Shown in pieces: positions 7,958 through 46,960 of a stretch of 64,000 nucleotides of DNA (position 1 is the stretch's first letter; every line of letters begins with the position of its first letter). The stretch spans positions 48,904 through 112,903 of the forward strand of contig CAKPKP010000001.1 of the NCBI GenBank assembly GCA_934167495.1, in the 5' to 3' direction. This DNA is from an uncultured Clostridia bacterium. Lineage in GTDB: Bacteria > Bacillota > Clostridia > TANB77 > CAG-508. Made by a program: the position numbers and the translations under genes. The notes under the pieces are model-generated. The model did no database searches, was not told the DNA's origin, and worked only from the letters and a program-made list of their open reading frames with translations.

Positions 7958-8003
7958 ATAAGGCGTTTTAAATGAAATATCATTAATTGCGCCTTATTTT
8001 TAT
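7958..8003 (+). terminator. hairpin (AATAAGGCG...CGCCTTATT) plus T-run after the DUF1292 gene
   Basis: Inverted repeat followed by TTTTAT. Also forms the left end of a copy of the intergenic repeat family. Confidence 0.45.
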
Positions 8004-8090
8004 ATAATAGGAAATTTCTCTGAATTTCCTATTATATAAATACAGTGTAAATAAAATTTTACAAAAGATTTTTAGAAAGAAGGAGTTAAA

Positions 8091-8561
8091 ATGGCTAGTT
8101 TATTCAGTTATTTACTTACAATATTTGCAGTGTTTTTTTGGATTTTTAGGGTTATTGTATCTCTTGCATATTCATTATCTTGGGACTTTGCATTTCAACC
8201 GATAAATCCACAATTAGAAATAGTAGTGCTATTTGCAACATTGCCATGTTTATTTTTAGTGGTAAAAAGAAATCTAATAGGTGCGACTGTTTATTTAGGA
8301 ATGTATGTAGCATATTTTGGAACAGAATTATTTAATATAATTACTGGAATTATAAATGGTCAAAATGGTATGGGAAGTTTCATGAATGCATTAGTAATTT
8401 TTATAGGTATATTAATTCCACTTTTATTATTTTTTGATATATTATTAAATAAAGATAGAACAGCTGGACGTAAAGATAAAAAAACAGATTGGTTTTATAC
8501 AAATAAAGATTATGATAGAGAATTTGATGAGAGAGCTGATAGAAATCAATATAGAACATAA
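8091..8561 (+). CDS. hypothetical polytopic membrane protein with charged C-terminal tail
   Basis: 4 predicted TM helices. No recognisable motif. Confidence 0.45.
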   Translation: MASLFSYLLTIFAVFFWIFRVIVSLAYSLSWDFAFQPINPQLEIVVLFATLPCLFLVVKRNLIGATVYLGMYVAYFGTELFNIITGIINGQNGMGSFMNALVIFIGILIPLLLFFDILLNKDRTAGRKDKKTDWFYTNKDYDREFDERADRNQYRT

Positions 8562-11744: not shown

Positions 11745-11849
11745 AAATTGTGCAGAAACTTTTAATATTGACATGAATAGAAAGTCTAATATTAAGAGTT
11801 TCTTTTTTTACATTACAGAAAAGTCATTCCAACTTCCTATAATATGTCT

Positions 11850-14424: not shown

Positions 14425-14721
14425 ATGAGAATAAAACAGCAAAAGCAGATAAAATCATTTTTAATCGAAGAGTTTGGGATAGATAAAGGGAATGCTTTGT
14501 TTGATAAGCAAGAGACAATGCTTAATGAACTTATTAAAAATAGGACTTATAGGAATAGTTGTGGGAACATTATTACTATTGATAAAATAAGTATAAGAGA
14601 TATTAAAATTTTAGCAAGTAAAGAAATTGAGTATGATAAAAAACTAGGTAAAGAAATAATGTATTTAGAATTAATTAAACTCTCTATATATGAATTAAAG
14701 AAAATGCACATGAGAGATTAA
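14425..14721 (+). CDS. hypothetical protein sharing a 20-aa C-terminal segment with the 16571 gene
   Basis: C-terminus SKEIEYDKKLGKEIMYLELIK versus SKEIEYAKKLGKEVMYLEPIK in the 16571 gene. ~85% DNA identity over ~60 bp. The N-terminus is unrelated. Confidence 0.4.
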   Translation: MRIKQQKQIKSFLIEEFGIDKGNALFDKQETMLNELIKNRTYRNSCGNIITIDKISIRDIKILASKEIEYDKKLGKEIMYLELIKLSIYELKKMHMRD

Positions 14722-14737: not shown

Positions 14738-15409
14738 ATGGATAGAAAAATGTTAGAAAATATTTATAATGATTGTTTAGAAATGGCTGATATAATTAAA
14801 AATCCAATATTAAAAGAATGTTGTAAAAAAATATATAGTGATTATAAAGAAAAATTAATAAATAAACCTGCTACACCTGGTTCACATCATTTTTATAAAG
14901 GAGGATTATTATTTCATATATATAGTGTTACAAAAAATGCTATGGCAATTTGTGATTTGTATCCTAACTTAAATGTAGATAAAGATTTAATAATTTTTGG
15001 CTCATTAGTGCATGATATAGGAAAATGTAATGATTTTAATGATTTTTCTGACAGTGAAAATTATAATTCTATAAATGGCAATAGTATGGATTTATTAGGT
15101 CATTCTTATGAAGGAACACATATTGTTGAGAACTATTTAAAAAATTATGATATAGATGAACAATTTAAAAATCAGATTATACATATGATAGGCAGTCACA
15201 TGAATGAATATAGTGAATGGGGAGCTTTAGTTTTACCTAAAATGCTTGAAGTTATAATTATAAATTATGCTGATAGTATGGATGCATATCTTGAACCAGC
15301 ACACAAAATTATTAATAATACAAAAAAAGGTGAAAAATATAAAGTTGCAAATGCACCAAGATATTATTATAAATCATTAAATCCATATTACGAAAATGAT
15401 AATTTGTAA
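14738..15409 (+). CDS. HD domain phosphohydrolase
   Basis: H...HD motif: HIYSVTKNAM...FGSLVHDIGK. Confidence 0.7.
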   Translation: MDRKMLENIYNDCLEMADIIKNPILKECCKKIYSDYKEKLINKPATPGSHHFYKGGLLFHIYSVTKNAMAICDLYPNLNVDKDLIIFGSLVHDIGKCNDFNDFSDSENYNSINGNSMDLLGHSYEGTHIVENYLKNYDIDEQFKNQIIHMIGSHMNEYSEWGALVLPKMLEVIIINYADSMDAYLEPAHKIINNTKKGEKYKVANAPRYYYKSLNPYYENDNL

Positions 15410-16570: not shown

Positions 16571-16867
16571 ATGAACAAAATTGTTACTATTTGTGGTAGT
16601 ATGAAATTTAAAGATAAAATGATGGAAGTAGCTAAAGAGTTAGAAATAAAAAATAATTATGTTGTTATTCAATGTATTTATAGTAATGATAAATTTAGTG
16701 ATGAAGAACAAAAAAATTTAGCAGATTTACATTATAATAAAATTAAAATTAGTGATGCAATATATGTAATAAATGTTAATGGATATATTGGAAATCAAAC
16801 AAGTAAAGAAATTGAATATGCTAAAAAATTAGGTAAAGAAGTAATGTATTTGGAACCTATAAAATAA
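16571..16867 (+). CDS. nucleoside 2-deoxyribosyltransferase-like (DNPH1/Rcl-like Rossmann) small protein
   Basis: IVTICGSMKF...DAIYVINVNGYIGNQTSKEIEYAKKLGKEV matches the layout of this fold. Confidence 0.5.
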   Translation: MNKIVTICGSMKFKDKMMEVAKELEIKNNYVVIQCIYSNDKFSDEEQKNLADLHYNKIKISDAIYVINVNGYIGNQTSKEIEYAKKLGKEVMYLEPIK

Positions 16868-19050: not shown

Positions 19051-19125
19051 GGCCCGTTGGTCAAGCGGCTAAGACGCCACCCTCTCAAGGTGGAATCATG
19101 GGTTCGATTCCCGTACGGGTCACCA
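19051..19125 (+). tRNA. tRNA-Glu, anticodon CUC
   Basis: GGCCCGTTGGTCAAGCGG...GGTTCGATTCCCGTACGGGTCACCA forms a cloverleaf. Anticodon loop CTCTCAA, stem CCACC/GGTGG. Near-identical to Bacillus tRNA-Glu apart from the anticodon. CCA is encoded. Confidence 0.85.
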
Positions 19126-19416
19126 AAAATTAAAAGTATCAAAGATTTTCTTTGGTACTTTTTTTACATTATAAAGAGTGTTCTTCAAATTTTTTTAATA
19201 TAAATAATTAGTTTAAAGCAAATTTCGTATGTAAGTAAATAAGCGGGATTTAACAAAGTACTAAATAGTAAAAATGTTATTAATATTTGCTTTTATAAAA
19301 AGAATAAAATTTTTTAATTTTAATGCAAACAAATGTATTGACAAAAGAAAAAATGTTTGGTAATATATATTTACTTTAAATGTATTAACTAAATTGATTG
19401 ATGGGGGGAATACAAA

Positions 19417-21043: not shown

Positions 21044-21220
21044 AAATAAATTTTTAAGATTCTTTGTTAAAATTTAACATAATAGAAATTTTACGAATAT
21101 TTACTATTATATAAAAAACGAAATAAAATTTACTCTAAAGTATTGAAAAAAATTTTTATATTTAATATACTAGAATTGTTACAAGGTTTCTAGTAACTAA
21201 TATAATTAGGGGGAATAAAA

Positions 21221-21985: not shown

Positions 21986-22023
21986 AAGAGATTCTAATTA
22001 AAAAATTAGAATCTCTTTTATAT
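21986..22023 (+). terminator. rho-independent terminator (AAGAGATTCTAATT/AATTAGAATCTCTT plus T-run)
   Basis: Perfect 14-bp inverted repeat followed by TTTATATT. Confidence 0.6.
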
Positions 22024-22084
22024 TATATAAAATTACATTGCACAGAAAATTTACGGAAAGATTCAATATTTTAAATTTGTTTTA

Positions 22085-24724: not shown

Positions 24725-24752
24725 GAGGATTCAGAATTGAATCCTCTTTATT
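24725..24752 (+). terminator. rho-independent terminator (GAGGATTCAGAATTGAATCCTC plus TTTATT)
   Basis: Perfect hairpin immediately after the nifS stop. Confidence 0.6.
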
Positions 24753-24910
24753 ATATAATAGGAAAGTATAGAATATACAACTACACTGTAGAAAAAAGTT
24801 ACTGAAAAAAATTTTGATTTTTAAATAGTTGAAATTTGTAATTTTATAGAATATAATACAACTGTAAATGAAAAATACCTAAAAAATATGTATGTATAGG
24901 AGGTAGAAAT

Positions 24911-30441: not shown

Positions 30442-30840
30442 ATGAATGAAAATATAAATACGAGTAATATAAAGAATTCTACTGCTTTTATTATTCTAAA
30501 AGGTTCTGTTTTAGCTATAGTTATTACTTTGGTTTTGTTATTAATTTTGTCTTTAATATTAACTAATACAAATATTTCAGAAGAGGTAATAACTCCGAGT
30601 ATAATAACTATAACAGCGGTAAGTATACTTGCAAGTAGTTCTATTTGTACTTTGAAAATTAGTAAAGGTGGTATTGTAACAGGTGGATTTATAGGTGGAA
30701 TATATATAATATCTATTTATTTAATTTCAAGTATTATTAGTGGAAATTTTGCTATTAATGTGTACTCAATGGTAATGATTTTTTTAGCAGTACTTGCTGG
30801 ATGCATAGGAGGAATAATAGGAGTAAATAGAAATACATAA
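30442..30840 (+). CDS. hypothetical 4-TM membrane protein (Gly-rich)
   Basis: ORF with GGGGGGAA RBS. Polytopic. Confidence 0.45.
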   Translation: MNENINTSNIKNSTAFIILKGSVLAIVITLVLLLILSLILTNTNISEEVITPSIITITAVSILASSSICTLKISKGGIVTGGFIGGIYIISIYLISSIISGNFAINVYSMVMIFLAVLAGCIGGIIGVNRNT

Positions 30841-30890
30841 ATACAAGTATTTAATAAAAAGCTTTTGTTTAGTTGTTAATCTACTAAATA

Positions 30891-31150
30891 AAGGCTTTTT
30901 TATATTATAGGAAAGTTCTCTAAACTTCCTATAATATAAATATATTGCACAGAAATTTGCTTTGCAAATTTCGCACACGAACAAAGACGCGGACTTCAAA
31001 ATGTTTTAATAAGTGCAAAAGTTATTAATGTCCGCTTTTGTTCTCTAATAGGAATTTTCTCTGAAATTTCTATTAGATAAATATTTTGTACAGAAATTTG
31101 CTATATACAAATTTTACACACGAACAATTAAACGCATTCTGAATTGGACA
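30891..31150. repeat. two tandem units of a modular intergenic repeat family (hairpin module, AAATTTGC-N3-GCAAATTT palindrome, GCGGAC...GTCCGC stem)
   Basis: TATATTATAGGAAAGTTCTCTAAACTTCCTATAATATA, then ATATTGCACAGAAATTTGCTTTGCAAATTTCGCACACGAACAAAGACGCGGAC...GTCCGCTTTTGTTCT, then a second degenerate unit. Other copies are at 7961-8070, 22003-22065, 36338-36477, 42821-42910, 46987-47050 and 55071-55245 (inverted), plus a fragment at 11815-11850. Confidence 0.85.
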
Positions 31151-31261
31151 ATTAAAAATATAATTTAAAATTTATAGTTATTAGTCTTGAAATTTTGTTG
31201 ACTTATTTAAAAGAAATTTGTATAATCATTTAAGAAATAGTATATATGGGAGGCATATTTA

Positions 31262-32389
31262 ATGAAGAAAAAAGTTGTTATAATAGGAGCAAATGATTTT
31301 CAAAATCCATTGATTTTGAAAGCAAAAGAATTAGGTTATGAAACTCATGTATTTGCTTGGAAGGATGGGTCAATAGGTGAAAAAACTGCAGACTTTTTTT
31401 ATCCAATTAGTATAGTTGAAAAAGAAGAAATTTTAGAAAAATGTAGAGAAATAAAACCAGATGCTATACTTACTATTGCATCAGATTTAGCAACTATAAC
31501 AGTTAATTATGTAGCAAGTAAATTAGGACTTACATGTAATTCATTAGAATGTACAGAGATTTCTACAAACAAATTTAAAATGAGACAAGCCTTTAAAAAA
31601 GCTAATATTCCAGTACCAAAATTTGAAATAGTGGATGAAAATACTAATTTGGATATTTTAAATGGAATGGAATATCCGCTAATAGTTAAACCAACAGATA
31701 GATCTGGAAGTAGAGCTATAAATAAAATTTTGAAAAAAGAAGAGTTAAGTGATGCAATTAAATTAGCAGTTGAAAATTCATTTGAGAAAAAAGCAATTGT
31801 TGAAGAATATATTGATGGAGATGAATTTAGTGCTGAATCTATATCTTTTCATGGAAAACATAATTTTCTAACAGTAACAAGAAAACAAACAACAGGATAT
31901 CCTCATTTTATAGAAACAGGTCATATAGAACCAGCAGGACTTTCAGAAGAAATTATTGAAAAAATAAAAAGTGCAATATTACCAGCTTTAGATAGTTTAA
32001 AAATAGAAAATGGTGCATCACATGCAGAATTTAAAATAACTCAAAATGGTGATATAAGAATTATAGAAATTGGTGCAAGAATGGGTGGAGATTGCATAGG
32101 TTCAGATTTAGTAAAAATATCTACAGGATATGATTATGTAAAAATGGTTATAGATGTTGCTTTAGGCAAAGAACCTGTATTAGAAAAAGTTTCTGTTCCA
32201 AAAATAGCAGTAATTAAATTTATATTTAATAAAGAAGATTTAGATGAATTAGAAAAGATAAAAAAAGAAAAGCCAGAAAAAATACATTTTGTTAGTGAAA
32301 TTAAAGATTTTGGAGGGCATAAGATTGTTGATAGTTCTTCAAGATATGGATATTATATTTTAGCATTAGATAGTATAGATGAAATTTAA
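31262..32389 (+). CDS. ATP-grasp domain protein (carboxylate-amine ligase-like)
   Basis: EYPLIVKPTDRSGSRAI and EEYIDGDEFSAESI... match ATP-grasp B- and C-subdomain motifs. Confidence 0.65.
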   Translation: MKKKVVIIGANDFQNPLILKAKELGYETHVFAWKDGSIGEKTADFFYPISIVEKEEILEKCREIKPDAILTIASDLATITVNYVASKLGLTCNSLECTEISTNKFKMRQAFKKANIPVPKFEIVDENTNLDILNGMEYPLIVKPTDRSGSRAINKILKKEELSDAIKLAVENSFEKKAIVEEYIDGDEFSAESISFHGKHNFLTVTRKQTTGYPHFIETGHIEPAGLSEEIIEKIKSAILPALDSLKIENGASHAEFKITQNGDIRIIEIGARMGGDCIGSDLVKISTGYDYVKMVIDVALGKEPVLEKVSVPKIAVIKFIFNKEDLDELEKIKKEKPEKIHFVSEIKDFGGHKIVDSSSRYGYYILALDSIDEI

Positions 32390-35101: not shown

Positions 35102-36334
35102 ATGGACTTAAATAAACCATTGGCATATAGAGTTAGACCGAAAACTTTAGAGGAGTTCGTAGGACAAGAACATATTTTAGGAAAAGATAAATTATTATAT
35201 AGAACAATTAAAGCAGATAGATTATCTAGCATAATTTTATGGGGACCTCCAGGGTGTGGTAAAACGTCTATAGCTAAAGTAATCAGTGAAACTACTAAAT
35301 ATAAGTTTGTAAAACTAAATGCTGTTACGGCAGGAGTTTCAGATATAAAAAATGCAATATCTGAATCAGAAAATATGTTACTTAATCCATCTGGAAAATG
35401 TATATTATTTATTGATGAGATACATAGATTTAATAAATTACAACAAGATGCTTTATTACCATATGTTGAAGATGGAACTGTAATTTTAATAGGAGCTACA
35501 ACGGAGAATCCTTATTTTGAAGTAAATAAAGCCTTAATTTCAAGGTCAATGGTAATTAAACTTGAAGAATTGAGTGAGGAAAATATATTTGAAATTTTGA
35601 AGAATGCTTTAGTTAACAAAGACGGGTTGGCAAATTATAATATTAAAATTTCAGATGAAACTTTAAGAAATATTGCAAGTGTATCTGGTGGAGATGTAAG
35701 AACTGCTTTGAACGGACTTGAAGTTGCTGTTCTTACTACAAATATGAATAAAGATGGAATAATTGAAATAACTGATGAAATTATAGCTGAAAGTATGAAT
35801 AAAAAGAAAGCTATGTTTGATAAGTCAGGAGATAGTCATTATGATAATATAAGTGCTTTTATAAAATCTATGCGAGGAAGTGATGCTGATGCTGCAATAT
35901 TTTATCTTGCAAGAGCATTAGTAGGAGGGGAAGACCCAATGTTTTTAGCTAGAAGAATTGTTATATGTGCAGCAGAAGATGTTGGAATGGCAAATCCTAA
36001 TGCTTTAGTTTTAGCAAATTCTGCTATGCAAGCTGTTCATATGGTAGGAATGCCAGAAGCAAGAATTATACTATCAGAAGCAGCAACATATGTAGCAACA
36101 TCAAAAAAATCAAATGCTACATATATTGGAATAAATAAAGCTATGGAAGATGTGGAGAATAAAAATACAGGAAGAATACCTATGCATATAAGAAATGCTC
36201 CAGCAAGTGGAATGGAACAGTTTGGATACCATGAAGGATACAAATATCCTCATGATTATCCAGGACATGTTGTAGAACAACAATACTTGCCAGATGAAAT
36301 GATAGGAACAAAGTATTATAATGAAGATTTTTAA
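35102..36334 (+). CDS. rarA: replication-associated recombination protein A (RarA/MgsA AAA+ ATPase)
   Basis: GPPGCGKTSIAKV, LFIDEIHRFNK and IGATTENPYFEVNKALISR are RarA-specific. Confidence 0.85.
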   Translation: MDLNKPLAYRVRPKTLEEFVGQEHILGKDKLLYRTIKADRLSSIILWGPPGCGKTSIAKVISETTKYKFVKLNAVTAGVSDIKNAISESENMLLNPSGKCILFIDEIHRFNKLQQDALLPYVEDGTVILIGATTENPYFEVNKALISRSMVIKLEELSEENIFEILKNALVNKDGLANYNIKISDETLRNIASVSGGDVRTALNGLEVAVLTTNMNKDGIIEITDEIIAESMNKKKAMFDKSGDSHYDNISAFIKSMRGSDADAAIFYLARALVGGEDPMFLARRIVICAAEDVGMANPNALVLANSAMQAVHMVGMPEARIILSEAATYVATSKKSNATYIGINKAMEDVENKNTGRIPMHIRNAPASGMEQFGYHEGYKYPHDYPGHVVEQQYLPDEMIGTKYYNEDF

Positions 36335-36337
36335 AGA

Positions 36338-36477
36338 ATATTTATATTATAGGAAGTTCAGAGAACTTTCATATAATATAAAAAATACGGACTTTTGAGT
36401 CCGCGTTTTTTATCTAATAGCAAATTTCACACACTAACAATTAAATGTGGGCTAAACTTATAAAGTTTAGCCCACTA
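36338..36477. repeat. copy of the intergenic repeat family ending in a perfect palindrome that acts as a bidirectional terminator (GTGGGCTAAACTT...AAGTTTAGCCCAC)
   Basis: TATATTATAGGAAGTTCAGAGAACTTTCATATAATATA, then ACGGAC...GTCCGCG, then the palindrome at 36447-36475. Confidence 0.8.
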
Positions 36478-36486
36478 ATGTTTTCA

Positions 36487-38850
36487 TTATTTATTTGAAG
36501 TTGTATCACTATGTTTATTTGTTCCTAATTTAAATGATATTGCATCTTCATTATCAAAGAAATATTTAGAATCAGTTATGTTAGTTTGAATAGGGTCCAT
36601 ATCATTTGGATTTTCAGGATTATTATTAAAGTTAATGTTTTTTAAATCAAATTTATTTTTAAATAATCTATTTTGTGAAGAATTCATTTTGTCCTCTTCA
36701 GTTTGAATTCCATTTGTAAATTTAGCAAAATTATATGTTTTAATTTTTTGTTTTTCTTTATACTTTGATTCTAGGAAATCAACTTTACCAGCACCAACAA
36801 TGTTTTTACCTTTTAGATCTTTAGTTTTATATATAAGTGCTTTAAATTTCAAACCTTGAATTTTACCAGCTTTATAATTTGCTTTCCATGCCCATTCAAT
36901 ATCTTTATATTTTTGATCATAAGTACCATCTTTAGTATTATAATCATTCTTAAATTTCCATTCTCTTTTTTCACCTAAATCTTTTTCCCACCAAGCATTA
37001 TCTTCAGGAGTGTTATTACCAAATACCATTTTTGTAGAGCAGTTTGCAACTATTGTTTGTCTGTAATTATCACCATCTGCTTTACCAAATTGAGAAAGGT
37101 TTTGAGCAGATATAATTGTTCCAACTCTATATTTTCTATACAATGTGAAGATATCTTCTGTAGCTCTACATACAAATGTAGGGAATTCATCAATATATAA
37201 GAAGTGAGGTATTCTAGTTTTTTCATTGCCTGGTCTTGATAAAACAGAGTGTTGCATTAATAATAAGAAGAATAGACCAAAAGCTTTATTTGTTATGGCA
37301 CCTAAATCACCTCTACGAGTACAAACGAAAACAACTTCACCATTTTTAAGTACTTTATCGTAATCAAGGTTATTATATCTATTACATAATATTGATTTAA
37401 CACCAGGGTATCTTAATAAAGTTTCAAGTTGAGAAGTAGCAGCTTGAATATATTTTTCTGCATTTTCTCTATTAACACCATTTCTATAGAAGTTCTTTTC
37501 ACAATAACCAATTTGAATAGAATATTGTTCAGATAAATATTCATCTTTTTTCATTTCTTCACACATTTTTTCTATTAAACTAAAGTTATTAAATAATTTT
37601 AATAAATCTTCTAAAGTAGGTAGGGCATTATCAGTTCTTCTTAAATAAACTTCTTTTAAAAGTAAACTTAAATTTTCAATTGCTTGAAAAGCAAAGTTTT
37701 GCATAAAAGCTTCTTCAGGAATAACATTTGATGTATCATACATTCTTTTTAGTACTGAAGAAATTGCTATAGAAGTTTTGATTGGATCTTTATATACGAA
37801 AGGATTTAAACCTATTGAATCTGGATTATTTGGATCAATTAAGTGATACTTAACATGATAGTTTTTAGCAACTTTAACCATATGTTCTATAGATTCATAA
37901 TCAGGTGCTACATATGTAATACCTAAATTTTTGTATACCGTATGTTCATCATCATAGTGATATATTAATTTTTTCATATAAGTTTTATATATTTTTTCTT
38001 TATAAGAAATAGGTGTAAGCATATTTAAAGAAAAGTTTTCATTTATATATTCATTTGAATATGGTGTGTTTAATGTAGCAATACCAGTTTTTAAAGCAGT
38101 ATATCCCATTTCTTTAGCAGCTTCTGTAAAGAAACATTTTTTCTCAATATCTCTTGCAATCATTGGCTCAAATACCATTGAAGTTTTACCAGAGCCAGAT
38201 ACACCTACAACTAATGTTGCTTCAAATCTTCTAGCTTCAGGTGTTTTGACTATTTTACCATTATCACTATCTTTACAAAGTGCTATTTCACATGTATATG
38301 GACCCCAACCTTCTTTATTATCTGATAAGTTTATTCCAGTATAATCTGTTATAGAATCTTTAATATCTTTAACATCATCAACTTTAAAATATAAGAATTT
38401 AAATAAAGTAAAAAATGTTACCAAAGGTACATAACATGAAATTGCTGTAAAAGCAGGTTTTATTAAATCTCTAAAATTTAAAACTACTTCAATATAATTA
38501 GGGGCTGAAAGTAATAATAACCATCCAGCTTTATTAAGCCATTGTGTAAGCATTGAAATTCCAACTATATAAAGTGAAATTGCATACAAATAGAAAAATG
38601 TTAATTTTTTCTTTTTGTCACTTGCAAACTTAGAGGATGATGAAAATAAAAATGCAAAAACAGGACATGCAAGTGCAAATGTATATTGGAAAGGTCCCCA
38701 ATATGATACTGAAATTCCAGTGAAGCACATAAATAATATTTCAACTACTCTATCTACACACACATATATAGTGAGCAATGTTAAAATATATGTAAAAAAG
38801 GTATTTCTATCAGTTTTTAGTATTTTTAAAAATTTATCTAAATATTTCAA
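36487..38850 (-). CDS. polytopic membrane P-loop ATPase, TraG/VirD4 (type IV coupling protein)-like; orphan
   Basis: N-terminal ~200 aa with about 4-5 TM helices. Walker A VVGVSGSGKTS. Walker B FLYIDEFP. Then ISAQNLSQFGK, resembling the T4CP Q-motif. No other T4SS genes nearby. Confidence 0.4.
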   Translation of the reverse strand: MKYLDKFLKILKTDRNTFFTYILTLLTIYVCVDRVVEILFMCFTGISVSYWGPFQYTFALACPVFAFLFSSSSKFASDKKKKLTFFYLYAISLYIVGISMLTQWLNKAGWLLLLSAPNYIEVVLNFRDLIKPAFTAISCYVPLVTFFTLFKFLYFKVDDVKDIKDSITDYTGINLSDNKEGWGPYTCEIALCKDSDNGKIVKTPEARRFEATLVVGVSGSGKTSMVFEPMIARDIEKKCFFTEAAKEMGYTALKTGIATLNTPYSNEYINENFSLNMLTPISYKEKIYKTYMKKLIYHYDDEHTVYKNLGITYVAPDYESIEHMVKVAKNYHVKYHLIDPNNPDSIGLNPFVYKDPIKTSIAISSVLKRMYDTSNVIPEEAFMQNFAFQAIENLSLLLKEVYLRRTDNALPTLEDLLKLFNNFSLIEKMCEEMKKDEYLSEQYSIQIGYCEKNFYRNGVNRENAEKYIQAATSQLETLLRYPGVKSILCNRYNNLDYDKVLKNGEVVFVCTRRGDLGAITNKAFGLFFLLLMQHSVLSRPGNEKTRIPHFLYIDEFPTFVCRATEDIFTLYRKYRVGTIISAQNLSQFGKADGDNYRQTIVANCSTKMVFGNNTPEDNAWWEKDLGEKREWKFKNDYNTKDGTYDQKYKDIEWAWKANYKAGKIQGLKFKALIYKTKDLKGKNIVGAGKVDFLESKYKEKQKIKTYNFAKFTNGIQTEEDKMNSSQNRLFKNKFDLKNINFNNNPENPNDMDPIQTNITDSKYFFDNEDAISFKLGTNKHSDTTSNK

Positions 38851-41319: not shown

Positions 41320-42762
41320 ATGAAAAAAGATTTTAGAAAAACAAAAATTATTTGTACTATAGGACCAGCTAGTGAAAGCAAAGAAATGTTAACAGGCCTT
41401 ATGAAAGCAGGAATGAATGTAACAAGAATTAACTTTTCACATGGTGGATATGAAGAAAATGCTGTTAAAATAGCTACAATAAAAGAAACAAGAGATGAAT
41501 TAGGATTACCAATAGCATTAGTATTAGATACAAAAGGTCCAGAAATAAGAACAGGTAAATTAGAATCAGGAGATGTTAAAGTAAAAATAGAAGAAGGTGC
41601 TACATTTACATTCTTATATGAAGATGTAATAGGAAATGAAACAAAAGCTTCTATTAGTTATAAAGGTTTATCAGAAGATGTAAAACCAGGATCTAGAATA
41701 TTAGTAGATGATGGTGCTATTGAATTCGAAGTACAAGAAATTGTTGGAAAAGATGTTGTTTGCAAAGCTTTAAATACAGGTATGCTTGGAAGTAGAAAAA
41801 CAGTTAATGTTCCAGGATTAAAATTAAACTTACCTGCATTAGCTCAAAAAGATATAGATGATATAACAAATGGTGTAAAAGCTGGATTTGATTATATTGC
41901 AGCTTCATTTGTAAGAAGAGCATCAGATGTACAAGAAATAAGAAACTTATTAGATGCTAATGGTGGACAAAAAGTAAAAATAATTTCAAAAATAGAAAGC
42001 CAAGAAGGTATAGATAATTTTGAAGAAATATTAGCTTTATCAGATGGTATAATGGTAGCTCGTGGAGATATGGCTGTTGAAGTTCCATTTGAACAAGTTC
42101 CAGTTATTCAAAAACATTTTATTAAAAGATGTAATGAAGTTGGAAAACCAGTTGTTACAGCTACACAAATGTTAGAATCTATGACAGCTAACCCAAGAGC
42201 AACAAGAGCTGAAGTAAGTGACGTTGCAAATGCTATATATGATAGAACAGGTGATATAATGTTATCTGGAGAATCTGCAATGGGTAAACACCCAATTACT
42301 TGTGTTGAAACAATGGTTAAAATAGCTAAAGTTGTTGAAAACGACTTAAATTACTGGAAGAGATTTAATAATTCAGATGTAAAAATGGATGAAAAAGATT
42401 TAGAAAGAAACATTTCATATATTACATGTGAAACAGCTAAAAACCTAAAAGCAGATGCAATAATTGCATATACTCATTCTGGAAATTCAGCTAGAAGATT
42501 ATCAGGAATGGGACCAGCTTGCCCAATATTTGCAATAACTGATGATAAGAAAACATTCTATCAATTAGGACTTTCTGCAAATGTTAATCCAATATATATT
42601 GAAGGAAAAGCAAGCATAGATGAAACTATAAATGCTGGTATAGAAAAATTAAAAGCAGATGGAATATTAGAATCAGGTGATGTTGCTATAATATCAGGTG
42701 GAGCTAAAATATTACAAAATAATACAGAAAACAAAATAATAGACGGAATATTAAAGATTTAA
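41320..42762 (+). CDS. pyk: pyruvate kinase
   Basis: RKTKIICTIGPAS, NFSHG and MVARGDMAVE match pyruvate kinase motifs. Confidence 0.9.
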   Translation: MKKDFRKTKIICTIGPASESKEMLTGLMKAGMNVTRINFSHGGYEENAVKIATIKETRDELGLPIALVLDTKGPEIRTGKLESGDVKVKIEEGATFTFLYEDVIGNETKASISYKGLSEDVKPGSRILVDDGAIEFEVQEIVGKDVVCKALNTGMLGSRKTVNVPGLKLNLPALAQKDIDDITNGVKAGFDYIAASFVRRASDVQEIRNLLDANGGQKVKIISKIESQEGIDNFEEILALSDGIMVARGDMAVEVPFEQVPVIQKHFIKRCNEVGKPVVTATQMLESMTANPRATRAEVSDVANAIYDRTGDIMLSGESAMGKHPITCVETMVKIAKVVENDLNYWKRFNNSDVKMDEKDLERNISYITCETAKNLKADAIIAYTHSGNSARRLSGMGPACPIFAITDDKKTFYQLGLSANVNPIYIEGKASIDETINAGIEKLKADGILESGDVAIISGGAKILQNNTENKIIDGILKI

Positions 42763-42820: not shown

Positions 42821-42910
42821 TTTTTTTATATTATAGGAAAGTTCTCTGAACTTCCTATAATATAAATATATTGCACAGAAATTTGCTTTGCAAATTTCAA
42901 AAGCAAATAA
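42821..42910. repeat. copy of the intergenic repeat family (hairpin plus AAATTTGC-N3-GCAAATTT palindrome)
   Basis: TATATTATAGGAAAGTTCTCTGAACTTCCTATAATATAAATATATTGCACAGAAATTTGCTTTGCAAATTTC. Confidence 0.85.
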
Positions 42911-43011: not shown

Positions 43012-44529
43012 ATGAATTTAAAGAAAAAAATAATTTTTCTAGTTTTTATTATATCGTTCTTTAGTATTGGAAATTTAGCTTATGCTAAAGAAAATGATTA
43101 TACAAATTTACCAACAAAATACATAAATGGAAAAGAAGTAATATACGGAATAGATGGTAAACAAAATACAGTTGGTGAAGTTATAAATAGTAATAATTTT
43201 AATTCTAAATATACTGTAAAAGCATTTAAAAATAATATAGAATTAACAAGTAGTCAACGATTAGGAACTAATACTATATTAAGGATTTATGATAAAAATA
43301 ATATAGTAAAAGAATATAATGTATTATTGTATGGAGATGTAATAGGGGATGGAAACATATCATCAATAGATTCTCTAGCAATAGTAAAAAATAAACTTCA
43401 AAAAATTAAAATTACTGATGAAATTAATTTAGAGGCAGGAAGAATAATGGTAGATGAAAGAGAAAGTAAAAAAATACCAGATTCAATAGATGCATTAGCA
43501 ATTGTAAAATACAAACTAGGAAAATATGAAATAGAACAAGGTAAGAAAATAGATAATAAAGATGACGATAAAAATGATAACAAAGATGATAATAAAAATG
43601 AGAATGAAGATATAACAATAGATACTAATACTCCTGTTGGAAAACATGGAAAATTATCAGTTGTTGGAAAAAATCTTGTAGATAAAAATTTAAATAATTA
43701 TCAATTAAAAGGTGTAAGTACTCATGGAATAGCATGGTTCCCTCAATATGTAAATAAAGATACTTTTAAATACATGAGAGATGAATGGGGAATAAATGTT
43801 GTAAGATTAGCTATGTATAGTGATCCAAATGCAGGATATTCATTGCAACAACATAAAGTTGTAAAAGCAGGAGTACAATATGCTACAGAACTTGGAATGT
43901 ATGTTATAATAGACTGGCATATATTAAGTGACGGAAATCCTAATATATATAAAACTCAAGCTATTAGTTTCTTTACAGAAATGACAAATGAATATAAAAA
44001 TAATGATAATGTAATTTATGAAATATGTAATGAACCAAATGGAGATGTTCAATGGAGTAGAGATATAAAACCATATGCAGAAGAAGTTATAGCAAAAATT
44101 AGAGAAATAGATTCAGATGCAATTATTATATGTGGTACGCCAACATGGTCACAAGATGTAGATATAGTAGCAAATGATCCTATTAAGGGGTATAAGAATA
44201 TAATGTATACTTTACATTTTTATGCTGGAACTCATAAAGAATATTTAAGAAATAAGGCGAAAGTTGCTATAGATGCAGGTTTACCTTTATTTGTAACAGA
44301 ATTTGGTATATCTGATGCATCAGGAAATGGAAAATTAGATGAACAAGAAGGAAATGTATGGATAGACTTTTTAAATAAAAATAATATTAGTTGGGTTTGT
44401 TGGAATTTGTCAAACAAAAATGAAAGTTCATCTTTAATTTCTTCAAGTACAAATAAGATAACGAATTGGAATGATACTGAGCTTTCAGATGAAGGAAGAT
44501 GGTTGATAAATGCTATAAAAAGAAAATAA
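43012..44529 (+). CDS. secreted glycoside hydrolase family 5 endoglucanase with N-terminal dockerin-like repeat pair
   Basis: ORF track 43002..44529 refined to the ATG at 43012 (MNLKKKIIFLVF). GDVIGDGNISSIDSLAIVKNKL is a dockerin-type Ca-binding loop. VSTHGIAWFP, ICNEPNG and VTEFG match GH5 catalytic motifs. Confidence 0.8.
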   Translation: MNLKKKIIFLVFIISFFSIGNLAYAKENDYTNLPTKYINGKEVIYGIDGKQNTVGEVINSNNFNSKYTVKAFKNNIELTSSQRLGTNTILRIYDKNNIVKEYNVLLYGDVIGDGNISSIDSLAIVKNKLQKIKITDEINLEAGRIMVDERESKKIPDSIDALAIVKYKLGKYEIEQGKKIDNKDDDKNDNKDDNKNENEDITIDTNTPVGKHGKLSVVGKNLVDKNLNNYQLKGVSTHGIAWFPQYVNKDTFKYMRDEWGINVVRLAMYSDPNAGYSLQQHKVVKAGVQYATELGMYVIIDWHILSDGNPNIYKTQAISFFTEMTNEYKNNDNVIYEICNEPNGDVQWSRDIKPYAEEVIAKIREIDSDAIIICGTPTWSQDVDIVANDPIKGYKNIMYTLHFYAGTHKEYLRNKAKVAIDAGLPLFVTEFGISDASGNGKLDEQEGNVWIDFLNKNNISWVCWNLSNKNESSSLISSSTNKITNWNDTELSDEGRWLINAIKRK

Positions 44530-44559
44530 CCTCTTAGATATCTACAGATTATGTAGCTA

Positions 44560-44780
44560 TTATAAGTAAAGACGGAGGATATTATCTTATTGATCCAAAT
44601 GATACAAACATAATTAAAACAGGAGATAGAATTATATTTGGAAAAAATATAGTGATGATACATATTACTCTATTAATGAGTACAAGAAAACAATAGAGGA
44701 ACAGATGCAGTACCATCTGCAATAGATGCTTTGATGATTGTAAAACATAAACTAGGTAAATATAGAATTGTTCAATAAAA
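44560..44780 (+). pseudogene. degraded remnant containing a dockerin-like fragment
   Basis: Out-of-frame pieces ...NGTDAVPSAIDALMIVKHKLGKYRIVQ* repeat the IDALAIVKYKLGKYEIEQ segment of the upstream GH5 gene. Confidence 0.4.
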
Positions 44781-44984
44781 ATGGAAAATAAAAAGTTCAC
44801 TTAGTAATAATAAAAATATAATAAGTGAACTTTTTAATATATTATTTGATATATTATAGAAAATTTTTCAAAAATTCAAAATTATTTTTATAAATATGTA
44901 TTGCAAAAAGAAATAATATACTGTAAAATAAAAATGAAGTAAAAAATAAAGGAGATGTAAACAAATGAAAAGCGTTGGCGCTGT

Positions 44985-45006
44985 AGAGAGAGAGAGAGAG
45001 AGAGAG
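44985..45006 (+). repeat. (AG)11 dinucleotide tract between the strong RBS/ATG (44965) and the body of the surface-protein gene
   Basis: AGAGAGAGAGAGAGAGAGAGAG read directly from the sequence. Flanked by GCTGT and CTATAC. Confidence 0.95.
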
Positions 45007-45034
45007 CTATACTTTAAGAAATAGAGAAAAAACA

Positions 45035-46960
45035 ATGTATAACAATGAAGCAAGGGACATTTTTAAAAATGGCTCTATTTTTGGTGTAAAAAAACAAGAG
45101 TCGGCAATAACATTAATAGCATTAGTTTTAACAATCGTGGTATTATTAATATTAGCAGGAATAACGTTAAATGCAGTTATTGGAGAAAATGGAATATTAG
45201 ATAAATCAAAAACAGCAGCGAATGAATATAAAATAGCACAATATAAGGAAAGAATAGAAATAATAACAGCAGGGGAACAATCTAAAAAGATAATTGATAA
45301 TTTACCTAAATCTTTAAAAGATTTAGTAGTAGAAAGATTAGAAAGTGAAGAAAATGCTTATTGGGTAAAAACAGTAAAAACAACTGAAGAAGATCCAGAA
45401 CTAGAAGAAAATCAAATAAAAGTAATAACACAAGATAAATATATAATAGTAGCAGAAATAGAAGACGGAAAAGTAACATTTATAACAATAGAAATAGATA
45501 ATGGAGAGCCTTATCCAAGTCTAGAAGCAGAAGTAATGCCACTAGAAGGACAAGAAGATGAAAATATAAAAATAAAAGTAAACGCAGAGGTAGGAAAAAC
45601 AAGTAAAACTACAAAAATAGATACAATAGAATTAATAAAAGAAGGAACAGTGCTAGAAACAAGAAATTATAATGAATTGCAAGTAAACGACACATTTGAA
45701 GTAGAAGAAAATGGAACATATAGAATAAAAGCAACAACAAATCAAAAAAGAAGTACTAGTAGAAAAGTAGAAGTAAATGTACAATCAATAGAAAGTTCAA
45801 TACAGATAAGTGCAGAACCAACAACAGAAATAGCAAGAAATACAGAGAATCCAGGAACAAAAAATGGAATAGAAACTGGACCAATAACAGTAACAATAAA
45901 GTATGAAGAAATAGGATTACAGAAACAATATAGTATAGATGGAGCGAATTGGATAAATATAGAAGAAACAACTGTAAAGATACCAGTAACAGAAAACATA
46001 AAAATAAAAGCAAGATATACAGATGGAAGTAATTCATACAAATTAACAAAATATGATGTACAAAATGTAGATAATATAGCACCAACATTTACAAAATATG
46101 ATGCAACAGTAAAAGAAACAACAATAACAGCAACAGGTGAAGCAACAGATACAGCAAGTGAGGGAGCAAAAAGCGGAATAGAAGGAATATTAAAATACGA
46201 ATATAGTATAGATGGAGAAAATTATCAAAATGAAAATACATTTACAGTAACAGTATCAGGAAATTATACAATATATATAAAAGCTATAGACAAAGCTGGA
46301 AACGAAACAATAGTAAGTAAAACAGTGGAAGTTGCAATTTATACAATAACTTATGATGCGAACGGTGGAACTGGTGCACCAGAAGCTCAAATAAAAATAG
46401 GAGGACAAGATTTAATATTAAGTTCTACTTATCCAACAAAATCAGGATACGCTTTTGCAGGTTGGGCAGAAAATGATAAAACTATTGCAGAATATACAAC
46501 TGAAAGCGTATATAGTAAAGATAAAGATGCTTATTTTTATGCAGTATGGATTAAATCAAGTATTAATTTTAGTAGTAGTAGTGAAGTTGAAAAAGAATGC
46601 AAATTGGGTGTTAGTCCACTTTTTCCAGTGGGTACTAAAATAACTTATAGTATATCTGCTTATTATGTAGTTACAGGTATGGATAATGGACATTCAATTT
46701 ATCAACAGCAAGGTTTTGACTTAGCAACAACAACACCATCAACAACAGGAGAATATGTAATAGTAGGAAAAACAGGTGGATATGTTCGTATAAATGAAAA
46801 TGTGGTAAGATCATCTGGTAGCTTTGTTACTAATAAAAATGGAGAAACTTTAAGTGTAGCTATCAAGGTACCAGAACATACTTCTAAAGGAACTTCTTCA
46901 GATAGTTATTATTGGACTAGAACTAATACGGTAAATCTTACTATAAAGATTTCTAATTGA
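45035..46960 (+). CDS. large surface protein: signal-anchor, Ig-like/FN3-like repeats, C-terminal Listeria-Bacteroides (InlB B-type) repeat
   Basis: Hydrophobic ITLIALVLTIVVLLILAGITL. YTITYDANGGTGAPE...SGYAFAGWAEND matches the B-repeat. The alternative upstream start at 44965 would be in frame if the AG tract gained one unit. Confidence 0.6.
   Translation: MYNNEARDIFKNGSIFGVKKQESAITLIALVLTIVVLLILAGITLNAVIGENGILDKSKTAANEYKIAQYKERIEIITAGEQSKKIIDNLPKSLKDLVVERLESEENAYWVKTVKTTEEDPELEENQIKVITQDKYIIVAEIEDGKVTFITIEIDNGEPYPSLEAEVMPLEGQEDENIKIKVNAEVGKTSKTTKIDTIELIKEGTVLETRNYNELQVNDTFEVEENGTYRIKATTNQKRSTSRKVEVNVQSIESSIQISAEPTTEIARNTENPGTKNGIETGPITVTIKYEEIGLQKQYSIDGANWINIEETTVKIPVTENIKIKARYTDGSNSYKLTKYDVQNVDNIAPTFTKYDATVKETTITATGEATDTASEGAKSGIEGILKYEYSIDGENYQNENTFTVTVSGNYTIYIKAIDKAGNETIVSKTVEVAIYTITYDANGGTGAPEAQIKIGGQDLILSSTYPTKSGYAFAGWAENDKTIAEYTTESVYSKDKDAYFYAVWIKSSINFSSSSEVEKECKLGVSPLFPVGTKITYSISAYYVVTGMDNGHSIYQQQGFDLATTTPSTTGEYVIVGKTGGYVRINENVVRSSGSFVTNKNGETLSVAIKVPEHTSKGTSSDSYYWTRTNTVNLTIKISN

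Follow-up and report, generated by a model that had tools for sequence, protein, structure and literature searches.

What are the hairpin-rich repeats that recur in the intergenic gaps of this stretch of DNA, 64,000 nt from an uncultured Clostridia bacterium (contig CAKPKP010000001.1; hereafter the window), and how did they come to lie where they do? The element at 30891-31150, two tandem units, was assigned in the original prediction to a modular, REP- or BOX-like family of repeats dispersed through intergenic gaps, and the sites of such a family were recovered by blastn, by a covariance model and as direct-repeat families. Its unit, 143 nt long in the intact copy at 30901-31043, is defined by structure: hairpin H1 at the 5′ end, hairpin H2, which varies, in the middle and hairpin H3 at the 3′ end, all carrying compensatory changes. 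Judged from the sequences that flank the copies, its defining property, which the original prediction had not noted, is a start exactly where the T-tract of a predicted intrinsic terminator ends. We consider it probable, at roughly 60%, that the family is a small, non-coding, non-autonomous repeat that homes to intrinsic terminators and has spread within and between genomes of Clostridia.

The intact reference unit lies on the plus strand behind the DUF3792 protein gene (30442-30840). The intrinsic terminator of that gene (30856-30900, plus strand; inverted repeat I1), with the stem AAAAAGCTTTTGTTTAGT/ACTAAATAAAGGCTTTTT and a T-tract, is the target structure, and the element begins directly after it at 30901, that is, at the end of the T-tract and not right after a stop codon, as had been proposed for the first module. 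H1 (30901-30938, plus strand) is a 38-nt hairpin, TATATTATAGGAAAGTTC-TCT/A-GAACTTCCTATAATATA, with one bulged A in its 5′ arm. A conserved A-tract, AAA, stands at its 3′ foot (30939-30941, plus strand), where it ends H1 and opens the linker; it could pair with the final Ts of the host T-tract, to which it is complementary, and is invariant or nearly so in an alignment of full-length copies. The linker terminates in …TTGCACA and leads to H2 (30952-30972, plus strand; inverted repeat I7), GAAATTTGC-TTT-GCAAATTTC, a hairpin prolonged by TTGCAC/GCACAC-type pairing of its flanks; the linker between H2 and H3 is GCACAC. H3 (30979-31043, plus strand) runs in the order GAACAAAG-AC-GCGGAC, an A+T-rich loop of ~35 nt, then GTCCGC-TTTTGTTC. 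The GCGGAC/GTCCGC stem (30989-30994 and 31030-31035) had been recognised as a third module; that module had been drawn too short, as the stem sits on a lower stem of GAACAAAG (30979-30986) and CTTTTGTTC (31035-31043), which forms the 3′ end of the unit.

This three-hairpin plan is held together by paired changes. In a structure alignment of 31 distinct full-length copies from different genomes (143 positions), 95.6% of the cells at paired positions form standard pairs, against 84.9% in shuffled columns and 37-49% when the partners are slid; both sides have changed in 12 of the 36 pairs (100 cells, versus 31 in shuffles), and the covariation score is 0.251, compared with 0.070 in shuffles. Helix 1 comprises 16 pairs, four of them changed on both sides and 96.4% of them paired, with an upper stem that is near-invariant between taxa and a lower stem that covaries. 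Helix 2 has five of nine pairs changed on both sides, and the upper stem of H3 three of five; at least three stem types occur in H3 (GCGGAC/GTCCGC, GGCAT/ATGCC and GTGGGC/GCCCAC), and the seventh pair of its lower stem alternates between A-T, C-G and T-A. The RNA fold of the reference unit reaches -41.2 kcal/mol (z = -7.4) and the DNA fold a z-score of -8.0; six divergent variants, with z-scores of -6.4 to -9.7, have the same three-hairpin plan in common. Element size varies from ~130 to 176 nt across the family, and a unit of 143 nt leaves no space for a gene and is without coding capacity.

To trace the family beyond the window, a collection of species-representative genomes was scanned with the H1 core GAAANTTCTCTRAANTTCCTAT, which returned at least 108 loci, all but two of them (the chance matches L014 and L109) with the same architecture. 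The carriers are at least 46 species-representative assemblies of 23-50% G+C, labelled Clostridia, Clostridium, Eubacteriales, Lachnospiraceae, Lachnospira, Butyrivibrio, Blautia, Anaerostipes, Eubacterium and Konateibacter. A metagenome scan with H1 added 118 further contigs, ~105 of them genuine and many labelled human gut. The window's own species is present in many gut samples and in GCA_977038395.1, and 20 kb of the window are 100% identical to a human-gut metagenome scaffold (ERZ28613859 scaffold_296; locus L123).

In G+C-richer hosts the top of H1 is unchanged and its lower stem covaries (TATTCTATAG/CTATAGAATA, TATGATATAG/CTATATCATA), and there, as in Lachnospiraceae, a longer G+C-rich hairpin stands in place of H2. 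The 3′ hairpin of these relatives is a textbook intrinsic terminator that retains the TTTGTTC end, for example GAGTTCGC-TTGC-GCGAACTC-TTTGTTC; the window's own H3, with its loop of ~35 nt, was not called by a terminator scan. With a hairpin and a T-rich tail, the 3′ end of the unit thus appears terminator-like by predicted structure.

What distinguishes the family is where it sits. Among 103 non-redundant H1 copies, 87% have a strong hairpin (minimum free energy of -8 or below) in the 51 nt directly upstream, compared with 24% of control windows placed 200 nt further upstream (Mann-Whitney p = 7e-23). T accounts for 75-93% of residues at positions -15 to -10 relative to the H1 core, and the junction falls 0-9 nt past the predicted stem in 93 of the 98 copies with an upstream hairpin, so that the target reads as a T-tract ending in A or C after a hairpin. 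Because the upstream hairpins differ in sequence throughout, they are host terminators that lie outside the element. At the right junctions (n=47) a single enriched T (83%) is followed by background. The upstream open reading frame (ORF) has the same orientation as the element in 79 of 100 copies, and only two of 80 classifiable copies lie in divergent intergenic regions. Structural-RNA genes are also among the neighbours: one copy follows tRNA-Glu in the window, and another follows tmRNA elsewhere (L017).

Two further features tie the ends of the unit to this target. The first is the A-tract: A occupies positions 5-7 after CCTAT in 93-96% of 114 copies, T stands opposite in 80-93%, and past the core the pairing runs on for a median of 8 contiguous pairs, compared with 1.9 when partners are permuted. 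The A-tract opposes the last Ts of the host T-tract, and the H1 helix thereby continues into the target. The second is mimicry: the unit's own 3′ end (hairpin plus TTTTGTTC) is similar to the target (hairpin plus TTTTTTA), and in arrays one unit follows another at the exact junction …CTTTTGTTC|TATTATAGG…, as in the window (31043|31044) and at L011, L013, L054 (three units) and L076.

Evidence for a selfish family that is or once was mobile, as opposed to a set of locus-specific genes, comes from comparing loci. In the window, copies at unrelated loci (30901, 42827 and 55103) are 96-99% identical, the others being ~70-80% identical or mere fragments, and one metagenome-assembled genome (MAG) carries identical copies at two different loci (L017 and L035). 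In a complete 1.55-Mb MAG of a related species (L058) the ATP-grasp region is only 74% DNA-identical to the window; the MAG holds a copy 97% identical to 30901-31043, yet behind EamA genes, and upstream of its ATP-grasp gene a gap of 34 nt takes the place of the window's two units. The terminator of the HU gene is empty in the window and occupied in another genome (L043). The neighbouring genes are unrelated housekeeping genes. Copies truncated at the 5′ end, truncated at the 3′ end or internally deleted are common, and mini versions of the L010 type retain H1 and the 3′ end.

Rearranged forms occur as well. A subfamily with H1 reversed relative to H2 and H3, found at no fewer than three loci (L007/L174, L143-type and L150), still lies directly after terminator T-tracts, which suggests that whatever reads H1 tolerates a reversed loop and bulge, that the palindrome can invert and that the variant then spreads or persists. 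At one locus (L038, 6760-7046) two convergent copies have one common H3, a head-to-head fusion, and are followed by a third partial copy; inverted copies therefore recombine with, or insert into, each other's 3′ hairpin.

Several observations weigh against a mobile repeat that homes to terminators. No clean pair of filled and empty alleles was recovered from the strain contigs and metagenome loci, so that insertion itself is inferred. Occupancy is constant in ~10 strain contigs over ~20 kb around HU and in two distinct strain contigs over 20 kb around 14738-15409, and copies in the window's species look fixed. The sole change among strains is a one-unit allele (L129) that lacks 141 nt at 30901-31043, attributable to a crossover between the two tandem units within their shared ACAGAAATTTGC; other species likewise show one-unit versus two-unit alleles (L138-type versus L165-type), and between L178 and L237 a 270-nt deletion turns a longer copy into an H1-only copy. 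As these alleles are changes of unit number and deletions, present variation appears to arise through recombination and deletion. The flipped-H1 subfamily is awkward if an enzyme reads the orientation of bulge and loop. H1 (GGAAAGTTC-TCT-GAACTTCC) and the H3 stem types are mutually unrelated, whereas the two ends of IS608-type elements resemble each other. Stem mismatches are G:T in 21 cases and A:C in 28, frequencies so similar that they favour neither strand as the folded one and neither RNA nor DNA. The strand of positive GC skew carries 76% of copies, a figure confounded with gene orientation given the few lagging-strand cases, and orientation to replication is inseparable from orientation to genes. 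The canonical 3′ terminator of many lineages could equally reflect selection at the RNA level.

The last point of this kind concerns the enzyme. A cognate transposase or binding protein had been suggested as something to look for, and no such gene adjoins the copies: in the 8-kb pieces around them that served as material for all gene searches, the ~220 loci gave no association with a transposase, a RAYT-like gene or a reverse transcriptase. When ORFs within 1.5-2.5 kb of H1 were clustered (108 genome and 118 metagenome loci), no recurrent transposase-like gene emerged; the recurrent clusters were ABC transporters, housekeeping genes (by Pfam) or a single locus resampled in many metagenomes. 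A crude motif scan of 1563 ORFs for HUH plus KYR motifs of Y1-HUH enzymes and for reverse transcriptase found nothing, all-versus-all blastn found no recurrent cargo upstream or downstream of H1, and neither a parent insertion sequence with matching ends (across 112 + 118 loci nothing downstream of H1 recurred, neither sequence nor ORF) nor a tnpA- or tnpB-encoding relative with the same ends appeared in the loci examined. Searched with the unit or the H1 pattern, PLSDB plasmids, GenBank phages and IMG/VR gave no match, leaving a phage or plasmid vehicle without evidence.

The alternative that survives best, though we judge it unlikely, is a structured RNA kept by selection on the host: a small RNA (sRNA) gene, or a module of the 3′ untranslated region or backup terminator, which would be transcribed, fold as the three hairpins and stop at an intrinsic terminator of its own, and which would be numerous because many operons need it for insulation, stability or regulation. 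Strong covariation and very stable folds speak for it, as does the textbook-terminator shape that the 3′ hairpin keeps in G+C-richer hosts despite lineage-specific sequence; placed after a possibly leaky terminator, the unit would be included in read-through transcripts. Against this, a sigma-70-like promoter was found neither within the unit nor ahead of it on the same strand (the one good promoter near the reference unit, at 31198-31226, lies downstream and serves the ATP-grasp gene), G:U pairs are not in excess over A:C in the stems, and positions are non-orthologous between related species. Truncated, internally deleted and decayed copies are numerous, and some units form tandem arrays of 2-3. 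No Rfam family matches: a gathering search with Rfam 15 of the window and 18 loci gave tRNA and tmRNA only, and an E-value search of 30800-31300 gave only chance-level matches. These contrary points fit a selfish repeat better, and some copies may be co-opted as terminators. The two readings are compatible, in that an element bringing its own terminator is harmless at its landing site. No description of the family was found in the full-text literature searched, exact sequence strings included, and the H1 string was absent from the first 200 of 408 supplement files of a human-microbiome structured-RNA catalogue, an unnamed entry in bulk catalogues being possible.

A second alternative, already raised by the original prediction, is that of a classical miniature inverted-repeat transposable element (MITE), an internally deleted DDE-type insertion sequence moved by cut-and-paste through its terminal inverted repeats. 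The copies are indeed small, numerous, intergenic and A+T-rich, and their mini versions retain both ends. We regard this origin as improbable, since the hallmarks of the class are missing. An inverted-repeat scan of 30850-31150 gave the host terminator and three internal hairpins only, with no terminal inverted repeats; there is no complementarity between the 5′ end TATATTATAGG… and the 3′ end …CTTTTGTTC; and no target-site duplication is apparent in sequence logos of the flanks (114 left and 47 right junctions). A parent insertion sequence with such ends is lacking at the ~220 loci, and strict targeting of terminators is atypical of DDE elements.

The copies might instead be binding sites in duplex DNA, an array of operators or nucleoid-protein sites at which a dimer binds H1, the palindrome AAATTTGC-N3-GCAAATTT or both; the latter had been singled out as a perfect 8+3+8 operator. 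Perfect or nearly perfect palindromes are present, the sequence at the top of H1 hardly changes across genomes of 25-50% G+C, and a flipped H1 is tolerated, as it would be by a symmetric dimer, to which the flip is no matter. The H2 half-sites nevertheless vary (AAATTTGC, AAAATTGC, AAAAATTG, AAATTTTA, AAAATTCT) while their pairing is kept, the spacer ranges from ~2 to 7 nt, and the whole hairpin is replaced by a longer G+C-rich one in Lachnospiraceae. The lower stem of H1 covaries too, and its conserved one-base bulge breaks dyad spacing. The copies are located after terminators, not at promoters, and no regulator gene is linked to them. Fixed dimer sites would therefore be a very unlikely explanation; the operator reading is not supported for H2, and a protein that binds duplex H1 is conceivable.

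Little probability likewise attaches to remnants of a larger element, either a terminator-homing retroelement such as a group IIC intron or the ends of an IS200/IS605 element (PATE). Group IIC introns occupy the same genomic niche (PMC1702495), and subterminal hairpins without terminal inverted repeats or target-site duplications match IS200/IS605 (PMC5027513). Neither a group II intron nor any other Rfam model of this kind matches the window or the 18 loci, though; the unit, at 143 nt, is without ribozyme domains; no ORF for a reverse transcriptase, TnpA or TnpB lies near the copies; and H1 is unlike H3.

That the repeats are local duplications of one terminator with no wider family can practically be set aside, because only the tandem pair at 30901-31139 would fit, whereas the family occupies more than 100 loci in at least 46 other species plus ~105 metagenome contigs and the upstream terminators all differ.

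A number of specific candidates were tried for individual motifs and dropped. The H1 arm ACTTCCTATAATATA, which we take to resemble the B. subtilis dif site, suggested Xer/dif recombination; its arms are wrongly oriented, and covariation occurs at the 'ATAA' positions. An FRT-like recombinase core failed on a spacer of just 3 nt, and sigma-54 and sigma-H promoters on wrong spacing and on motifs that are not conserved between subfamilies. Half-sites of parS or DnaA boxes in the H1-H2 linker are not conserved, nor is the ssoA CS-6 motif (TAGCGA in some H3 loops); attC is excluded by the absence of R′/R″ boxes, and a TnpB omega-RNA by the boundary terminator, which would cut off any guide.

For the terminator-homing repeat that we favour, a finer model can be sketched from the anatomy of the unit, by analogy with the pairing between guide and cleavage site in IS200/IS605 elements and with the precedent of terminator homing in group IIC introns; we offer it tentatively, as possible and on balance doubtful. 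The element would move as a single strand, or its folded shape would at least be what is recognised. The A-tract next to H1 would pair with the exposed T-tract and so line up the end of the T-tract with the 5′ end of the element, giving the joining point; the right end would be presented likewise, its T-rich strand held in the helix below the hairpin. An enzyme encoded elsewhere would then cut and join in trans; Clostridia commonly carry Y1/HUH transposases, none of which was linked to the element at the loci searched. Landing behind a terminator while carrying a spare one would make insertion nearly harmless, which would explain a density of ~1 copy per 6 kb in the window.

How does such an element compare with known repeats? 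The modular, structured intergenic repeats of Gram-positive bacteria, pneumococcal BOX (boxA-boxB-boxC), RUP and SPRITE, have variable module content, and the likeness to them is one of lifestyle only, in different taxa and with no sequence relationship known to us. RUP has terminal inverted repeats and an IS630-type TA target; for BOX, we know of no mobilising enzyme and of no homing to terminator T-tracts. The Correia elements of Neisseria and bcr1 of Bacillus cereus are abundant repeats of ~100-160 nt with stable transcript structures that can supply promoter or terminator activity; unlike the present unit, both have terminal inverted repeats and target duplications (TA; TTTAT), and neither homes to terminators.

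REP, BIME and REPIN sequences are short, abundant extragenic palindromes that are recognised as hairpins and moved in trans by RAYT, a single-copy chromosomal HUH enzyme (PMC3333891). H1, an abundant 38-nt extragenic palindrome located 3′ of transcription units, frequently as an H1-only copy, resembles them, and so does the clustering of non-coding units into composite or modular arrays. The differences are that REPs, of ~20-40 nt, carry a GTAG-type 5′ tetranucleotide and form inverted pairs in Proteobacteria, whereas the unit spans 143 nt and three different hairpins with fixed polarity, begins precisely at terminator T-tracts and occurs in Clostridia; GTAG is absent from it, units are directional and head-to-tail, and no RAYT-like gene lies in the 8-kb pieces around copies.

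The substrate of the Y1 transposases of IS200/IS605 is single-stranded DNA, in which they bind hairpins near the ends (PMC5027513, PMC6006769), and subclass 1.1 of this family is strongly represented in Clostridia (PMC6006769). The unit shares with these elements and their PATE derivatives the absence of terminal inverted repeats and target-site duplications and a subterminal hairpin at each of two unlike ends. Insertion directly 3′ of a short target, and sites read by pairing with internal bases near the foot of the hairpin, are features of IS200/IS605 that the unit would share under the finer model. In IS608-type elements, by contrast, both ends have similar hairpins, with the guide on their 5′ side, while H1 and H3 differ and AAA, the proposed guide, follows H1 on its 3′ side; a full 8-bp helix makes up the right end of the unit, a host hairpin belongs to its target, and neither tnpA nor tnpB was found at the loci searched. 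Group IIC introns, in turn, typically lie just downstream of an inverted repeat followed by Ts, a stem-loop implicated in recognition of the 5′ exon (PMC1702495). The unit shares that location behind a terminator stem-loop plus Ts; introns of this class measure at least several hundred nt, are ribozymes and usually carry a reverse transcriptase, while the 143-nt unit has no such domains, no Rfam intron match and no ORF resembling a reverse transcriptase.

Taken by category, the lifestyle of the family is closest to REP/BIME-REPIN and pneumococcal BOX, its ends to IS200/IS605 derivatives and its target to group IIC introns. To our knowledge, strict homing to terminator T-tracts has previously been described only for those much larger introns, and the combination of terminator homing with terminator mimicry is apparently unusual and undescribed. 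Pressed further, the comparison suggests a Gram-positive counterpart of the REPIN-RAYT system, in which the target, an extruded terminator hairpin with its T-tract single-stranded, would be read through the A-tract below the bulged H1, the 3′ mimic would neutralise the insertion and make the next landing site, and a conserved enzyme acting in trans would be common to Lachnospiraceae and other gut Clostridia; this extension is more speculative than the finer model, and we think it rather unlikely in full.

If the family is a terminator-homing repeat, much of the intergenic DNA of abundant gut Clostridia, genomes of 1.5-1.7 Mb included, would be shaped by a single uncatalogued family. Its copies are apt to be taken for sRNAs, terminators or operators in annotation, and short-read assemblies break at them. 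Behind an operon, every copy brings in hairpins and in many cases an extra terminator, and tandem and inverted copies are substrates for recombination. The conserved H1 offers a handle for finding the enzyme, which could be a new hairpin-specific, site-directed DNA tool.

Within the window (G+C 26.2%), copies were located with a 160-nt query region compared with the whole window by blastn and with the covariance model R1, built from copies of other genomes plus the reference copy and run with filters off. The tally is one intact 143-nt unit, at least six clearly recognisable copies that are partial or decayed, and a number of weaker fragments, and with three or fewer mismatches allowed the 28-nt H1 core occurs three times, compared with 0.00 expected from dinucleotide shuffles. 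Significant blastn matches lie at 7997-8058, 11804-11845, 19160-19294, 30891-31050, 31034-31127, 36338-36385 (minus strand), 42822-42898 and 55102-55220 (minus strand), with weaker ones at 21060-21118, 22021-22051 and 47001-47031, and direct-repeat families D4-D7 from a repeat scan tie the sites of the original prediction together. Most of its list stands, with three entries (11807-11848, 22021-22051 and 47001-47031) reduced to weak fragments, and with a minus-strand copy (49752-49864) and a decayed copy (19160-19294) added.

The reference unit scores 154.8 bits with R1 (model positions 1-143). The second unit (31044-31139, plus strand; 47.7 bits), with a decayed H3, abuts it head-to-tail (…CTTTTGTTC|TCTAATAGG…) and is 79.8% identical to it over 94 nt by blastn. 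Downstream is the ATP-grasp enzyme gene (31262-32389); repeats had been said to flank an ATPase gene here, and copies in fact lie only upstream of the ATP-grasp gene, the next one following the gene for the MgsA ATPase (35102-36334). An H1+H2-only copy, truncated at its 3′ end (42827-42904, plus strand; 81.5 bits; 98.7% identical to the reference over 77 nt), begins past the T-tract of the terminator of the pyruvate kinase gene (41320-42762). An inverted copy without the 5′ arm of H1 (55103-55236, minus strand; 107.1 bits; 96.6% over 119 nt) is located between the terminator of the gene at 54225-55046 and spoIIIAF (55301-55867), an assignment made earlier and confirmed by Pfam PF09581. An H1 copy with a short decayed tail (7999-8058, plus strand; 88% identical to the reference, blastn E 8e-12) follows directly after a terminator at 7961-7995, and the R1 match there, at 8001-8105, scores 49.7 bits.

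The repeats at 36338-36477 are not a single inverted copy and resolve into three parts. An H1-only copy on the minus strand (36343-36380; 43.7 bits, model positions 1-38; blastn 95.8%) is preceded on that strand by a hairpin plus ATTTTT; despite its look of a flipped H1, it is an ordinary minus-strand H1-only copy. Beside it lies what reads as a bidirectional terminator-like hairpin, ACGGAC-TTTTGA-GTCCGC (36387-36411), which stands between an A-tract and a T-tract and is abutted on each side by an element copy. The third part, recognised by comparison with the second unit, is a decayed, internally deleted plus-strand unit (36412-36483; ATCTAATAG|CAAATTTCACACACTAACAATTAAAT plus a GTGGGC…GCCCAC hairpin; the plus-strand R1 match spans 36343-36483 at 39.9 bits), whose H3 doubles as the terminator of a convergent TraG-like gene. 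That gene (36487-38850, minus strand) encodes a lone 787-aa homologue of TraG/VirD4-type coupling proteins among housekeeping genes; it is conserved in all strains sampled, and no other conjugation genes lie nearby.

Older copies also follow terminators. Directly after that of tRNA-Glu (19051-19125) lies an old decayed copy (19160-19294, plus strand; blastn 67% over 146 nt, E 4e-10), of which R1 detects only the 3′ part (19236-19295, E 0.028), and a degenerate H1 stands after a terminator T-tract at 11807-11848 (plus strand; 81% over 42 nt, E 9e-6). Among the weak fragments, that at 22003-22065 (plus strand) follows a terminator and combines an H1 remnant with the start of the H1-H2 linker (ATTGCACAGAAAATTT; blastn 22021-22051, E 0.009, and no R1 match), that at 47001-47033 (plus strand; …ATGTCCGCTTTTGTTTT; blastn E 0.009) derives from the 3′ end, and an H1-like palindrome at 21073-21115 (74%; blastn E 1.7e-4; R1 E 1.4) is of uncertain membership. 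Two further weak blastn matches with no R1 match, at 24746-24826 (E 1.7e-4) and 44845-44914 (E 4.6e-4), may be very old decayed copies.

The minus-strand copy missing from the earlier list, a 5′-truncated H2+H3 copy with a type-C H3 (49752-49864, minus strand; 47.9 bits), lies within an element that interrupts cotJC, upstream of a serine recombinase gene. The host gene, of the Mn-catalase family, is split on the minus strand (47054-52679) into an N-terminal part (52356-52679) and a C-terminal part (47054-47329), and it follows cotJA (52944-53282) and cotJB (52681-52944). The insert of ~5 kb (about 47330-52355) carries genes for a large serine recombinase (49899-51500) and an MBL-fold protein with an Anti-Pycsar Apyc1 Pfam match (48536-49312), plus small ORFs, and a CATGG(A/T)(G/T)GGG-like core occurs at both junctions. 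By gene content and junctions it looks like a skin-type sporulation intervening element.

Next to this region, an (AG)11 microsatellite (44965-45035) lies in a short ORF with a strong ribosome-binding site, just upstream of an ORF for an Flg_new surface protein (45035-46960). Nine strains of the window's species show length differences of +2 to +16 nt in this tract, in what looks like slipped-strand phase variation. The neighbourhood beside the Flg_new gene differs in several strains (L125-L130), and the interval from a GH5 cellulase gene to the Flg_new gene (44529-45035) is strain-variable, other strains having one or two extra genes there, some with faint dockerin matches (L124-L132).

Three repeats of a different kind lie inside coding sequence. 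A 749-aa ORF (8845-11094) with Pfam ChW repeats and Peptidase_M14 contains six tandem coding repeats of ~135 nt (8950-9755), and an 882-aa ORF with no Pfam match on record (3064-5712) contains an acidic, Asp/Glu-rich stretch of GATGA/GAAGA repeats (4011-4781). Two 98-aa ORFs (14425-14721 and 16571-16867) share an 83-nt segment (14597-14679 and 16782-16864) that is 81% identical, and form a small paralogous pair with no assigned function.

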